Shown here one piece after another: positions 16,097-22,830 of a DNA stretch of 42,979 nucleotides. The translations under genes were made by a program, and so were the position numbers. The stretch lies in NCBI RefSeq assembly GCF_003334815.1, contig NZ_QOWO01000032.1. The stretch is one strand, 5' to 3'. Within the stretch, counting starts at the first letter, position 1. Each line of letters begins with the position of its first letter. The notes under the pieces are model-generated. The model did not search any database, was not told where the DNA came from, and saw nothing but the letters and a program-made list of their open reading frames with translations. This DNA comes from Escherichia coli (GTDB lineage: Bacteria > Pseudomonadota > Gammaproteobacteria > Enterobacterales > Enterobacteriaceae).

Positions 16097-16966
16097 TTAT
16101 TTCAGAACAGTTTTCAGTGCTTCACCGATATCCGCCAGGCTGCGAACGGTTTTCACGCCTGCGGCTTCCAGAGCAGCGAATTTCTCATCCGCAGTCCCTT
16201 TCCCACCGGCAATGATGGCACCCGCGTGGCCCATACGTTTGCCTTTCGGCGCAGTCACACCAGCGATGTAACCCACAACTGGCTTGGTAACGTGCTCTTT
16301 GATGTACGCAGCTGCTTCTTCTTCAGCGCTACCGCCGATCTCACCGATCATCACGATCGCTTCGGTCTGCGGATCTTTTTCGAACATTTCGAGAATGTCG
16401 ATAAAGTTAGAGCCCGGGATCGGGTCACCGCCGATACCGACACAGGTCGACTGACCGAAACCGTAATCCGTGGTCTGTTTAACCGCTTCATAGGTCAGTG
16501 TACCGGAACGGGAAACGATACCCACTTTACCCGGTTTGTGAATGTGACCAGGCTGGATACCGATTTTGCATTCACCCGGAGTGATAACGCCTGGGCAGTT
16601 CGGGCCGATCATACGAACGCCTGCTTCATCCAGCTTCACTTTCACGGTCAGCATATCCAGCGTCGGGATGCCTTCAGTGATGGTGATAATCAGTTTGATG
16701 CCTGCGTCGATGGCTTCCAGAATGGAGTCTTTGCAGAACGGTGCTGGTACGTAGATAACAGAAGCGGTAGCGCCAGTGGCAGCAACGGCTTCACGCACGG
16801 TGTTGAACACCGGCAGGCCGAGGTGGGTGGTGCCGCCTTTACCTGGGGTTACGCCGCCAACCATTTTAGTGCCGTATGCAATGGCCTGTTCTGAGTGGAA
16901 AGTCCCCTGGCTACCGGTAAAGCCCTGGCAGATAACCTTGGTGTTTTTATCGATTAAAATGGACAT
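16097..16966 (-). CDS. sucD: Succinyl-CoA synthetase alpha subunit
   Basis: 289 aa starting [45 protein letters not shown]; CoA-binding and catalytic His-loop region. Confidence 0.97.
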
Positions 16967-18132
16967 TATTTCCCCTCCACTGCGGCAACAACCTGCTGAG
17001 CTGCATCCGTCAGACCTTTTGCTGCAATAATATTCAGGCCGCTGTCAGCCAGTTTCTTCGCGCCGAGTTCGGCGTTGTTACCTTCCAGACGTACCACGAC
17101 CGGTACGTTAACACCCACTTCTGCTACCGCGCCGATGATACCGTCAGCGATCAGGTCGCAACGAACGATACCGCCGAAGATGTTAACCAGAACGGCTTTC
17201 ACTTTGTCGTCAGAGAGGATGATTTTGAACGCTTCGGTTACACGTTCTTTGGTTGCGCCGCCGCCAACGTCAAGGAAGTTAGCCGGTTCGCCGCCGTGCA
17301 GTTTAACGATGTCCATCGTACCCATCGCCAGACCTGCGCCGTTAACCATACAACCGATGTTACCGTCCAGCGCAACGTAGTTCAGTTCCCACTGTGCAGC
17401 CTGTGCTTCACGCGGATCTTCCTGCGACTGGTCACGCATTTCGCGCAGATCAGGCTGGCGGAACAGTGCGTTGCCGTCAGCGCCCAGTTTGCCGTCGAGG
17501 CAAATCAGATCGCCCTGTTTGGTGATGACCAGCGGGTTGATTTCGATCAACGCCAGGTCGCGCTCCAGGAAAATGGTCGCCAGGCCCATGAAGATTTTGG
17601 TGAACTGCTGAACCAGTTTACCTTCCAGACCCAGTTTGAACGCCAGCTCGCGTCCCTGATACGGCATCGGGCCAGTCAGCGGATCAAGCGCAACTTTATG
17701 GATCAGGTGCGGAGTTTCTTCCGCCACTTTTTCGATTTCCACGCCGCCTTCGGTGGAGGCCATAAAGACCACACGACGGGAACTACGGTCAACAACGGCA
17801 CCGAGATACAGCTCTTTAGCGATATCGGTCGCTGCTTCAACCAGAATCTGGTTAACCGGTTGGCCATTGGCATCTGTTTGATACGTTACCAGACGCTTGC
17901 CCAGCCAGTTTTCTGCAAAAGCACGGATGTCTTCTTTGCTGTTTACAACTTTCACACCGCCCGCTTTACCGCGGCCACCAGCGTGAACCTGACATTTCAC
18001 TACCCACGGACCGGCACCGATTTTTGAAGCGGCTTCTTCTGCTTCGCGCGGAGTAGTACAGGCATAACCCACCGGTGCTGGTAAGCCATAGCGGGCAAAA
18101 AGTTGTTTTGCCTGATATTCATGTAAGTTCAT
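16966..18132 (-). CDS. sucC: Succinyl-CoA synthetase beta subunit (ATP-grasp)
   Basis: 388 aa starting [20 protein letters not shown]; stop overlaps the sucD start by 1 nt. Confidence 0.97.
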
Positions 18133-18214
18133 GTGTTCTGTCCATCCTTCAGTAATCGTTATCTTTTAAACCGTAGACCGAATATTTCGTATCGCTTCCG
18201 GGCATTGTCGGTCA

Positions 18215-18485
18215 CCCGTAGGCCTGATAAGACACGTTAAACGTCACATCAGGCATCGCTTGTCGGATGCGGCGCTTGCGCCTTATCCGACCTACATTGG
18301 TGGTCCCCGTAGGCCTGATAAGACACGTTAACCGTCACATCAGGCATCGCTTGTCGGATGCGGCGCTAGCGCCTTATCCGACCTACATTGGTGGTCCCGT
18401 AGGCCTGATAAGACGCGTCAGCGTCGCATCAGGCTTCAATTGCCGGAGAAGGCGATAATGCCTTATCCGGTCTACAGTGCAGGTG
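18215..18485. repeat. Three tandem ~91-bp BIME/REP-containing units between sucB and sucC
   Basis: Units begin near 18215, 18306 and 18396; each contains gtaggcctgataagacgcgt…gcatcaggc and gccttatccg REP-like palindromes. Confidence 0.85.
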
Positions 18486-18497
18486 AAACTTAAACTA

Positions 18498-19715
18498 CTA
18501 CACGTCCAGCAGCAGACGCGTCGGATCTTCCAGCAACTCTTTGATCGTTACCAGGAAGCCCACGGATTCGCGACCATCGATCAGACGGTGATCGTAGGAC
18601 AGCGCCAGGTACATCATCGGCAGGATCTCAACCTGACCATTCACCGCCATCGGACGATCTTTGATAGCGTGCATACCCAGAATTGCGCTCTGCGGCGGGT
18701 TGATGATCGGCGTAGACATCAGGGAACCGAACACACCACCGTTGGTGATGGTGAAGTTACCACCGGTCAGATCTTCAACGGTCAGCTTGCCGTCACGGCC
18801 TTTGACTGCCAGCTCTTTGATTTTCTTCTCGATGTCTGCCATGCCGAGGGTATCGACATCACGCAGAACCGGCGTCACCAGGCCGCGCGGCGTAGAAACC
18901 GCCATGCTGACGTCGAAATAGTTGTGGTAAACCACGTCATCGCCGTCGATAGAAGCGTTCACTTCCGGGTAACGTTTCAGGGCTTCAACCACCGCTTTCA
19001 CGTAGAAGGACATAAAGCCCAGACGGATGCCGTGGCGTTTTTCAAACGCTTCACCGTACTGCTTACGCAGATCCATAATCGGCTTCATGTTGACTTCGTT
19101 GAACGTGGTCAGCATGGCGGTGGAGTTTTTCGCTTCCAGCAGACGCTCTGCCACACGCTTACGCAGGCGAGTCATCGGGACACGTTTTTCACTACGTGCA
19201 GCCAGAGCCGGTTGCGCCGCCGGAGCAGCCGCTGCCGGAGCAGACTCTTTCGCCGGGGCTTTCGCCAGATGTTTTTCCACATCTTCACGAGTCAGACGAC
19301 CACCCACACCGGTACCTTTAATGGCGCTGGCGTCGAGATTGTGTTCAGCCAGCAGGCGACGGATCGCCGGGCTTAACGCATCGTTGTTTTGCTCTTCCAG
19401 AGACGCCTGCTGGCGTTGCGCCGGAGTGGACGCTTTCTCTTCAGATTTGGCGCTGGTTTCTTTACCGGCGCTGTTGCCTTCACGCAGGCGACCAAGGATC
19501 TGACGAGACGTTACCGTTGTACCTTCATCTTCCAGAACCGCATCCAGAATGCCGTCTGCTGATGCCGGTACTTCCAGTACCACTTTGTCAGTTTCGATTT
19601 CTACCAGCACTTCATCACGTACGACTGCGTCGCCGGGTTTTTTATGCCAGGTTGCGACGGTGGCATCGGCTACGGATTCAGGCAGGTCAGGGACCAGAAT
19701 ATCTACGCTACTCAT
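18498..19715 (-). CDS. sucB: 2-oxoglutarate dehydrogenase E2 (dihydrolipoyllysine-residue succinyltransferase)
   Basis: 405 aa; N-terminal lipoyl domain (…[12 protein letters not shown]…), Ala/Pro-rich linker, C-terminal catalytic domain (…DHRLIDG…). Confidence 0.97.
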
Positions 19716-19729
19716 TGTGTATCCTTTAT

Positions 19730-22531
19730 TTATTCGACGTTCAGCGCGTCATTAACCAGATCTTGTTGCTGTTTCTGGTGAACGGACATATACCCTACCG
19801 CCGGAGAGGCGGAGGCCGGGCGGCCTGCATAACGCAGAGAAGCCCCAAACGGAATCACTTCACGGAAATGATGCTGGCTGCAGTACCATGCGCCCTGGTT
19901 GAGCGGCTCTTCCTGGCACCAGACAAAATCCTTGACGTGAGCAAACTGCTGCAACACTTCCTGCATCGCTTTATGCGGGAACGGGTAGAGTTGCTCGATA
20001 CGCACAATGGCGACATCGTGTTGATTGTTCTTACGACGCTGTTCCAGCAGGTCGTAATAAACCTTACCAGAACACATCACTACGCGCTTCACGCCCTTCG
20101 GATCAAGCTCGTCGATTTCACCGATGGCTGGCAGGAAGGTGCCGTTCGCCAGTTCTTCGAGGCTGGAAACCGCCAGCGGATGACGCAGCAGGGATTTCGG
20201 CGACATCACGACCAGCGGACGACGCATCCCGCGCAGCGCCTGACGACGCAGCATGTGGTAAACCTGTGCCGGGGTAGACGGTACGCAAACCTGCATGTTT
20301 TGCTCAGCACAAAGTTGCAGATAACGTTCCAGACGCGCGGAGGAGTGCTCCGGCCCCTGCCCTTCGTAACCGTGCGGCAGCAACATCACCAGACCACACA
20401 TCCGGCCCCATTTCTGTTCGCCAGAGGAGATGAACTGGTCGATAACCACCTGCGCACCGTTGGCGAAGTCACCGAACTGCGCTTCCCAGATGGTCAGAGT
20501 GCGTGGTTCTGCGGTGGCATAACCATATTCAAACGCCAGCACTGCTTCTTCAGACAGTACGGAGTCCCAGACACGGAACGCGCCCTGCCCGTTATGGATA
20601 TGTTGCAGCGGCGTGTAAGTGGAACCGTTAGACTGGTTGTGGATCACCGCGTGGCGGTGGAAGAAGGTACCGCGACCGGAGTCTTCACCCGACAGGCGAA
20701 CCGGAATGCCTTCATCAACCAGCGTGGCGTAAGCGAGGTTTTCCGCACCGCCCCAGTCGAACAGTTTCTCACCGGCAGCCATCGCCTGGCGATCGCCATA
20801 AATCTTGGCAACGCGAGACTGCATTTCAACTGCTTCCGGCACCGTGCTGATGCGTTTCGCCAGCTCCTGCAGGCGCTTCATCTCAACTTTGTTCGGGTAC
20901 TCTTCGTCCCATTCGTGGTTGAGGTACGGCGACCAGGTGAAAGAGTGCATGTTCATCGGACGCCACTCTGCCACTACGCAATCGCCAGCATCCAGCGCAT
21001 CGCGGTACAGGTTAACCATCTCGGTGGCATCTTCCAGCGTCGCCACTTTTTCCTGCTCCAGCTTGTCAGCGTAGATTTTGCGCGGTGTCGGATGTTTTTT
21101 GATTTTCTGATACATCAGCGGCTGGGTTGCGCTCGGCTCGTCGGCTTCGTTGTGGCCGTGACGGCGGTAGCACACCAGGTCGATGAAGACATCACGTTTA
21201 AAGGTGTTACGGAAATCGAGCGCCAGACGGGTCACAAAGGCAACGGCTTCCGGATCGTCCGCGTTAACGTGGAAAATCGGGGCCTGAACCATCTTACCGA
21301 TATCAGTACAGTACGGCGTAGAACGGGCATCCAGCGGATTAGAGGTGGTGAAACCAACCTGGTTGTTGATAACGATACGTACCGTACCGCCAACTTCATA
21401 ACCACGCGCTTTCGACATGTTCAGGGTTTCCTGAACCACGCCCTGCCCGGTCACTGCGGCGTCACCGTGGATGGTGATTGGCAGCACTTTGTTGCTGCTC
21501 GGCTCATCAAGTCTGTCCAGACGGGCACGAACAGAACCGATAACTACCGGGCTTACAATCTCAAGGTGAGACGGGTTAAACGCCAGCGCCAGGTGCACCA
21601 GGCCGCCATCGGTCTGGAAGTCAGACGAGAAGCCCATGTGGTATTTCACGTCACCCGTGCCGAGGTGTTCTTTATGTTTACCGGCGAACTCGTCGAACAA
21701 GTCTTGCGGTTTTTTACCCAGCACGTTCACCAGCACGTTCAGACGACCACGGTGCGCCATCCCGAGAACCACTTCGCGGGTGCCGCTGTTGCCAGCGTGG
21801 CGGATCATCTCTTTAAGCATCGGGATTAACGCGTCACCGCCTTCCAGCGAGAAGCGTTTTGCGCCAGGGAATTTTGCGCCGAGGTAACGTTCAAGACCTT
21901 CAGCGGCGGTCAGTTCGCTTAAGAAGCGTTTTTTCTCTTCGCTATTGAAAGTCGCGCGACCAGACTCGATACGCTGTTGGATCCAGCGTTTTTCTTCGGT
22001 GCTGGTAATGTGCATATACTCGGCACCAATCGGGCCGCAGTAGGTTTGCTTGAGGGCTTCCAGCAGCTCGCCGAGTTTCATGGTTTCTTTGCCGCTGGCA
22101 AATGAACCGACGTTGAAGGTCTCCTGGAAGTCTGCTTCGGTCAGATCGTGGAAAGACGGATCCAGATCGGCCACTTTATCTTGCTGCCACAGTCCCAGCG
22201 GATCGAGATTCGCATGCTGGTGACCACGGAAGCGGTATGCGTTAATGAGCTGCAGGACTTTAACCTGCTTCACATTGGTGTCAGGGTCGGAGATCGTTGA
22301 AGAGTAACGTGAAGCGTCTTTCGCCAGGCGGCGGAAATATTCACGCGTTTGAGAGTGGAATTGATCCGGTTTGACTCCCGTACCAGGTAACTGCTGGAAC
22401 GTCGAACGCCAGTTAGCGTCAACCGAGTCAGGATCGGTTAAGAAGTCTTCATAGAGCTGTTCTATCCAGCTCTGGTTTGCGCCAGAGAGGTAAGAAGAGT
22501 CCAACCAGGCTTTCAAAGCGCTGTTCTGCAT
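19730..22531 (-). CDS. sucA: 2-oxoglutarate dehydrogenase E1 component
   Basis: 933 aa starting [38 protein letters not shown]; ThDP-dependent E1. Confidence 0.97.
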
Positions 22532-22710
22532 CGTGATCCCTTAAGCATCTTTTTTATGCTTACTTCGCCGTGGATACTACCACGCACAGTGATGTGCGTG
22601 CCGGGGTTCACTTGCGAGCTCTTGTCTACGTAGTGGCTCGCGAAGGAACCTTTAAAAACTGTCTTAGTGTCAGGGGCAGTTTTTAAAGATTTCCTGCATT
22701 TCTTTGTTAC

Positions 22711-22830
22711 GCCTGATGCGCTGCGCTTATCAGGCCTACGGGTAATGACTTGTAGGCCGGATAAGGCGTTCACGCCGCATCCGGCACTGGTTGCCTGATG
22801 CGACGCTTGCGCGTCTTATCAGGCCTACGG
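22711..22830. repeat. REP/BIME cluster in the sdhB-sucA intergenic region
   Basis: Three REP-like palindromes (gcctgatgcg…cttatcaggcctacg; tgtaggccggataaggcg…; gcctgatgcgacgcttgcgcgtcttatcaggcctacgg) immediately after the sdhB stop. Confidence 0.8.

Follow-up and report, generated by a model that had tools for sequence, protein, structure and literature searches.

A three-unit BIME-2 array in the sucABCD message of Escherichia coli, with probable RNA-level protection of sucAB and possible attenuation into sucCD

The sucB–sucC spacer and its repeats

The stretch of DNA analysed here, referred to below as the window, comprises 42,979 nucleotides of Escherichia coli (NCBI RefSeq assembly GCF_003334815.1, contig NZ_QOWO01000032.1). 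Its minus strand carries sucA (19730–22531), sucB, also named odhB (18498–19715), which encodes the E2 subunit of 2-oxoglutarate dehydrogenase, sucC (16966–18132), which encodes the beta subunit of succinyl-CoA synthetase, and sucD (16097–16966). All four genes are assigned by NCBIfam equivalogs, with E-values of 1e-198 for sucB (NF004309/TIGR01347), 5e-184 for sucC (NF001913) and 1e-145 or better for sucA and sucD. The sucB gene is the 5′ neighbour and sucC the 3′ neighbour of an intercistronic spacer of 365 nt (18133–18497, minus strand), which measures 274 nt in K-12 MG1655 and in which no feature is recorded in the RefSeq annotation, that of MG1655 included. On the mRNA strand, 22 nt separate the sucB stop codon from the first repetitive extragenic palindrome (REP), and 85 nt follow the last one, ending in the sucC ribosome-binding region (AAGGATGG, 18142–18149, minus strand), which is kept across genera. 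The translation initiation region of sucC is the target through which GcvB represses this gene, as described with a K-12 sucB–sucC fusion (PMC9299463).

A scan of the spacer for promoter-like sites returned none. The terminator scan returned a single match (18515–18495), with a stem of 7 bp, which straddles the sucB stop codon, and such matches are no more frequent than in shuffled sequences (1 found, 0.8 expected). Together, these results place the array inside the suc operon, and the preliminary description of the locus, which had proposed this position, is borne out by the equivalog assignments of both flanking genes.

The array itself (18218–18475, minus strand) consists of six REPs, arranged as three y/z2 units of about 90 bp with a period of about 91 bp. 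Tandem Repeats Finder detects a single array (18203–18476) with a period of 91, 3.0 copies, 87% matches and a score of 385. In the repeat search, the segments 18215–18305 and 18306–18396 share 98% identity, and the third, sucB-proximal copy (18396–18485) is diverged, with 75–96% identity over sub-segments. The coordinates and the count of three tandem units of about 91 bp given earlier are thus confirmed by both programs; the accompanying statement that the units are nearly identical holds for two of them and fails for the sucB-proximal one.

In the order of the mRNA strand, all on the minus strand, the first unit is formed by REP a (18441–18475), a diverged y type that agrees with the consensus at 28 of 35 positions and whose GTAG foot doubles as the 5′ arm of an outer stem, and by REP b (18399–18434), a z2 type, that is, an inverted REP with CTAC at its 3′ end, matching the consensus at 34 of 36 positions. 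The middle unit, missing from K-12, consists of REP c (18352–18386, y type) and REP d (18309–18345, z2 type, variant GTGACGGTTAACGTG). The third unit, REP e (18261–18295, y type) with REP f (18218–18254, z2 type), has exactly the sequence of the second K-12 unit. The whole reads y–6 nt–z2–12 nt–y–6 nt–z2–13 nt–y–6 nt–z2, with head-to-head linkers of 6 nt and tail-to-tail linkers of 12–13 nt, the latter of which we take to be the motif "s" of the BIME nomenclature.

Each REP, when folded alone, gives a hairpin interrupted by an internal mismatch, and the folding energies lie between −15.2 and −21.4 kcal/mol. For the RNA of the entire spacer, the folding energy is −157.3 kcal/mol (z = −8.7 relative to shuffles), and the outer stem closes the array. 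This RNA contains 91 C and 100 G; it is not enriched in C over G and thus offers no classical Rho loading site.

The membership of these repeats in the REP family is established by several observations. All six are palindromes of 35–37 nt with a GTAG or CTAC foot, and they agree with the consensus, derived from the Rfam naRNA4 model, at 28–30 of 35 positions for the y type and at 32–34 of 36–37 positions for the z2 type. With up to 3 mismatches allowed, 0.00 matches to these patterns are expected in shuffled sequences. The array is entirely extragenic, bounded by the sucB stop codon on one side and the start of sucC on the other, and the only open reading frame that overlaps it is spurious. 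Moreover, each of the three units gives a full-length alignment, on the mRNA strand, to Rfam RF02564 (naRNA4). Two of the scores (59.8 and 59.5 bits) reach the gathering threshold of 59.5 bits, and the third (56.4 bits) stays below it. Since the RF02564 model is itself the y/z2 REP pair of REP325, such a match indicates REP-pair identity and not the function of a small RNA.

According to the published definition (PMC3333891), the y and z2 REPs of a BIME-2 element alternate in orientation and are joined by short linkers. The head-to-head linker is named S in the nomenclature, and the tail-to-tail one is an s, l or r motif. The present array shows this alternation and such linkers, and its number of tandem units varies among strains. 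Both strands of the spacer are free of matches to the IHF consensus (WATCAANNNNTTR), and z1 REPs are absent from it as well, which assigns the array to BIME-2 rather than to BIME-1. The latter class, built of y and z1 REPs around a long L linker with an IHF site, was considered and rejected, as the linkers here are of 6 and 12–13 nt and both the IHF site and z1 are missing. An intrinsic terminator was likewise rejected: the scan finds none in the array, and the outer stem is followed by UUUAAAAG, with no U-run. The sucB–sucC repeat is therefore an ordinary element of a type well known from E. coli, at a locus that has been studied before. The initial reading of the repeats as REP-pair (BIME) units stands, given the GTAG/CTAC feet, the alternating y/z2 order, the short linkers and the RF02564 matches of all three units, and so does the remark that they are not a repeat-spacer array.

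That the locus might instead hold a gene for a naRNA4-like small RNA, a CRISPR-like array or a protein-coding frame on the plus strand is very improbable. Such readings could draw on the regular spacing, on the two units at the gathering score of RF02564 and on an ATG-initiated frame of 63 amino acids. An independent small-RNA gene was rejected, as no promoter-like site is present and the RF02564 match, being to one y/z2 REP pair, merely restates REP membership. A CRISPR array was rejected because the units are contiguous and no unique spacers exist, the apparent spacers being linkers that are themselves repeated. The open reading frame (18267–18458, plus strand, 63 codons, ATG start) runs antisense to the operon and lies wholly within the REP array; it is absent from 63% of genomes and must be spurious, since it shrinks to 14 codons in the K-12 allele. 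This frame is a repeat-generated artefact which could be picked up by gene callers.

The consensus pattern search detects more y and z2 copies within the window, at 22752–22828 and 40250–40284. The former belong to a second BIME of the operon, in the sdhB–sucA spacer (22700–22830, minus strand), which comprises three REPs (z2, y, z1), the first of them only 3 nt past the sdhB stop codon, and coincides with an Rfam naRNA4 match of 88.4 bits at 22755–22825 (plus strand). This spacer is the region to which the literature assigns the internal terminator of the operon and the suc promoter. The latter is a y-type REP (40250–40284, plus strand) that directly adjoins a match to the Rfam ES036/CssrF small RNA (40207–40249, minus strand, 75 bits), and this "sRNA" family may itself be REP-derived. 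Elsewhere in the window, four tRNA genes are clustered at 5–592 (minus strand) and overlapped by two Rfam RtT matches (54.9 and 58.8 bits), and the Rfam CpoB/ybgF thermometer matches at 1519–1657 (minus strand, 142 bits). Overlapping tandem repeats with periods of 15–78 are located at 3927–4147, within an apparent Ala/Lys-rich coding region, probably tolA, as we assume.

Copy-number alleles and the gain of units

The number of units was surveyed in 5,426 complete E. coli genomes. BLAST coverage cannot separate two-unit from three-unit alleles, as overlapping pieces cover the query either way; the alleles were therefore counted with junction-specific and SNP-specific 60–75-mers and a synthetic four-unit query. 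The most common state is the lack of an array, recognised in 3402 of the 5426 genomes (63%) by a 60-mer spanning the array-less spacer, and strains of this type include O157:H7, O103, O111, Nissle 1917 and E2348/69. Their spacer is 93 nt long and is built around a hairpin of 15 perfectly paired bp (CUGUAGACCGACGUG…UGUCGGUCUACGG), after which comes UUUAAAAG. In HS-02, an array-less variant of 89 nt has a shorter loop (GTAGACCGACGGGATGTGTCGGTCTAC) and keeps the stem. The predominance of this allele implies that the array is dispensable, and that any effect it has is a modulation and not a requirement.

An array is present in 2019 genomes. The three-unit allele of the window type accounts for 1052 of them by its allele-specific junction (about 20% of the survey), BL21 being an example, and the K-12-like two-unit allele for about 580. 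The K-12 strains J53, W3110, DH10B and MG1655 all have the 274-nt spacer with four REPs and lack the middle unit of the window, so that the laboratory strains of the K-12 and B lineages differ in the sucB–sucC spacer. Diverged arrays, with two or three units or in a form of 261 nt whose fourth REP is truncated, are found in about 390 genomes. Four units are indicated in 3 of the 5426 genomes by a single full-length match to the synthetic query, and the four-unit allele was verified in strain A23 (NZ_CP028752.1), with a spacer of 456 nt and eight REPs. No array above four units was seen among the 5,426 genomes, although rare ones are possible. Two junction queries aimed at arrays of at least four units matched only three-unit arrays in which SNPs had been homogenised between units, a state recorded in seven genomes. 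The preliminary description had held tandem arrays of this kind to be prone to copy-number change and had proposed the comparison of unit number across E. coli genomes. The number is not uniform: alleles of 0, 2, 3 or 4 units occur, and the expansion from two to three units has taken place independently at least twice.

The sequences of the units indicate how they are gained. The middle unit of the window differs from the K-12-type unit at 2 positions and from the units of other alleles at 6–9, which identifies it as a recent copy of the K-12-type unit. In strain APEC37, the three-unit allele most resembles the two-unit alleles found in AST85 and JNE25, and it contains its own linker signature twice; on these grounds, it has arisen independently. 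In the four-unit allele of A23, the third unit is chimeric, with a y variant taken from one parent unit and a z2 variant taken from the other, which points to unequal exchange or slippage between misaligned units. Most likely, the number of units changes by unequal homologous exchange or by replication slippage between the units of about 91 bp. Recombination mediated by the RAYT protein is an alternative route of copy-number change; BIME copy number varies among strains, and BIMEs are substrates for cleavage and recombination by TnpA-REP in vitro (PMC3333891).

The outer hairpin across Enterobacteriaceae

The equivalent spacer was compared in 120 loci from species-representative genomes, retrieved with a degenerate sucC-start pattern. 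Two-unit arrays are also present in Escherichia albertii (261 nt) and Escherichia whittamii (274 nt). Salmonella and some Citrobacter have a single REP doublet at the equivalent place. Shorter GTAG…CTAC hairpins are located there in other Citrobacter, Klebsiella, Enterobacter and Lelliottia, and non-REP hairpins in still other genera. As a separate observation, a minority allele of E. coli (NZ_OZ121072.1; 261-nt spacer, truncated fourth REP) shows 1 difference in unit 2 from E. albertii NBRC 107761 and 18–19 differing positions from the corresponding units of K-12 and the window. Such near-identity across the species border, combined with the divergence within E. coli, suggests introgression or a trans-species polymorphism.

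The position of the element is far more constant than its length. In 38 loci with a GTAG…CTAC element, it starts 20–29 nt past the sucB stop codon (21–24 nt in nearly all) and ends 38–46 nt before the sucC ATG (40–41 nt in most), and the span between these borders ranges from 24 to 303 nt. In the window, the borders correspond to the arms of the outer stem, the 5′ arm being ACUGUAGACC (18469–18478, minus strand) and the 3′ arm GGUCUACGGU (18170–18179, minus strand), which is followed by UUAAAAGAUAAC. By direct reading, the right-hand foot appears to be supplied by a degenerate REP-like remnant, TGCCCGGAAGCG…CGGTCTAC (18173–18204, minus strand). In dozens of species, the stem of 10 bp begins 7 nt past a conserved CACCTG, and about 40 nt separate its end from the sucC ATG.

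Among 25 distinct arm pairs, 96% of the cells are paired, and 9 of the 10 base pairs have changed on both sides. None of 500 shuffles reaches this level, and slid registers attain 24–48%. The test used a motif-anchored gapless alignment in which the 3′ register was the best of 13 offsets for each sequence, and the pairing is inflated by this fit. Furthermore, many of the arms are REP feet, so that the apparent covariation may partly reflect the replacement of one REP family by another and not selection on the stem. MAFFT combined with RNAalifold on the trimmed 5′ and 3′ arms predicted no pairs, with the 3′ arms misaligned by 1 nt. Taken together, the comparison supports, and does not prove, an arrangement in which the array sits in the loop of an intercistronic hairpin whose position and pairing are kept across Enterobacteriaceae. 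The nesting of the array in a conserved outer hairpin appears to be undescribed in the literature searched.

The conserved frame raises the possibility, to be taken seriously and held tentatively, that the outer hairpin with the subsequent UUUAAA is the functional element, as a weak intrinsic attenuator, a processing site or a 3′ stabiliser common to Enterobacteriaceae, and that the REP array either modifies it or is irrelevant to it. The fixed position relative to CACCTG and the sucC ATG in dozens of species is consistent with this, as are the level of pairing over the 25 arm pairs, equalled by none of the 500 shuffles, and the array-less allele of E. coli, in which a perfect 15-bp stem precedes UUUAAAAG. 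The fitted 3′ register and the number of arms that are REP feet lessen the weight of the pairing, the U-tract is poor, and the hairpin is missing from the matches of the terminator scan. A role of the outer hairpin would in any case complement a role of the REPs themselves and does not exclude it.

A further-reaching version is rather doubtful. In this scenario, the sucB–sucC hairpin would be an ancient, selected RNA signal of Enterobacteriaceae, acting in processing, stabilisation or attenuation and setting the ratio of the 2-oxoglutarate dehydrogenase and succinyl-CoA synthetase messages. REPs would have colonised its loop repeatedly, and the forms with 0, 4, 6 and 8 hairpins would act as a graded, lineage-specific dial on the stoichiometry of enzymes of the TCA cycle.

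Probable role and relation to known systems

The array is best explained as a BIME-2 element of three y/z2 pairs in the sucABCD message which probably protects sucAB at the RNA level and possibly attenuates expression into sucCD. Its six hairpins, rich in G+C and with energies of −15 to −21 kcal/mol each, would block 3′-to-5′ exonucleases, and the block would lead to a longer life of the upstream sucAB segment. The hairpins may also partly attenuate transcription into sucCD, as for REP325, and the sucAB:sucCD ratio would be shifted. Both effects would become stronger with more hairpins, of which the window has six and K-12 four. By analogy, alleles with six, four and zero hairpins would be expected to differ in their effect on sucAB and sucCD.

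Published work on the same locus and on related arrays provides precedents for such a role. According to one article (PMC4372235, citing Khemici and Carpousis 2004), an mRNA decay intermediate of the K-12 sucB–sucC REP accumulates in a ΔrhlB pcnB strain, and its clearing needs RhlB and poly(A) polymerase. Deletion of REP325, as reported in a preprint (bioRxiv 10.64898/2026.03.23.713779), lowers the yjdM/yjdN ratio from 35 to 1. The same source describes a partial Rho dependence of the full REP325 array only and not of 2–4 hairpins, and, genome-wide, an expression biased to the upstream gene in REP-containing tandem gene pairs. Since Rho dependence is restricted to the full array, it may be weak at sucB–sucC. 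The mapped 3′ end T3PE-226 is BIME-associated (PMC9023263), and its placement at sucB–sucC is a candidate one. The first REP of the window lies 22 nt past the sucB stop codon. Effects of REPs on translation reportedly need a distance of about 15 nt or less, a value ascribed to Liang, Rudd and Deutscher (2015), so that a translation mechanism is probably not applicable here.

It is somewhat unlikely, though far from negligible, that the array is carried along as a neutral or selfish element, that is, a set of REP doublets (REPINs) spread by the RAYT transposase or by slippage, which has no local function and only occupies a pre-existing hairpin. Its absence from 63% of genomes would fit such a history, and so would the independent, recurrent expansions, the fast turnover of content inside a conserved frame across genera (the GTAG…CTAC span of 24–303 nt) and the cleavage and recombination of BIMEs by TnpA-REP in vitro (PMC3333891). 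However, a measurable stabilisation of an RNA fragment by the K-12 element is on record (PMC4372235), the upstream bias of REP-containing tandem pairs extends genome-wide in the preprint (bioRxiv 10.64898/2026.03.23.713779), and all REP stems are intact in the diverged alleles. A selfish origin and an effect on RNA are, moreover, compatible with each other.

A role at the level of DNA would locate the function in sites for gyrase, Pol I or HU, which would relieve supercoiling in a heavily transcribed operon or organise the nucleoid. Gyrase and Pol I bind BIMEs, as known from the older literature, and the Rfam name "nucleoid-associated RNA 4" goes back to the HU hypothesis; both speak for such sites. 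This role is nevertheless quite unlikely for the present array: in the preprint, deletion or overexpression of REP325/naRNA4 left the nucleoid volume unaffected, and Hi-C revealed no HU-dependent REP–REP contacts (bioRxiv 10.64898/2026.03.23.713779).

As a discovery, the array carries little weight, for textbooks already cover BIME-2 arrays, the variation of their copy number among strains and their action as stabilisers or attenuators of mRNA, and the K-12 locus is a published REP-stabiliser substrate. What is added is a clean natural allelic series of 0, 2, 3 and 4 units in an operon of central metabolism, with sequence signatures of unit gain. The series would be a convenient test bed for the question of the 2026 REP325 study, namely, whether the number of hairpins tunes upstream stabilisation and downstream read-through.

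The closest relative of the array is the K-12 sucB–sucC element (MG1655 762740–763013), which shares with the window the locus, the flanks, the outer stem and the first and last units. The window differs by one additional unit of 91 bp (REPs c and d with the linker), so that 365 nt and six hairpins stand against 274 nt and four. REP325/naRNA4 of the yjdM–yjdN operon is likewise a tandem array of y and z2 REPs between co-transcribed genes, and the units of the window align to the naRNA4 model. The preprint shows that REP325 has a stabilising effect on the upstream gene and acts as a partial terminator ahead of the downstream gene (bioRxiv 10.64898/2026.03.23.713779). It contains six units, 12 hairpins and an internal linker of 13 nt, whereas three units and a linker of 6 nt are present here.

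CRISPR arrays resemble the locus in their regularly spaced palindromic repeats, but unique spacers, a leader and adjacent cas genes are missing here, and the repeats are REPs that recur elsewhere in the window. With the REPINs mobilised by RAYT (TnpA-REP), the array shares its unit, the doublet GTAG-REP … iREP-CTAC, which is single at the equivalent site of Salmonella and Citrobacter; in contrast to RAYT transposition, the chimeric unit of A23 points to homologous unequal exchange. The BIME-2 family in the nomenclature of Gilson and Bachellier (Ton-Hoang 2012) has the same alternation of y and z2, the same short head-to-head linker and the same strain-variable tandem number. Nothing essential sets the sucB–sucC array apart from this family, except for the unusual divergence of its first y REP (28/35) and for an extra half-REP foot that brackets the array.
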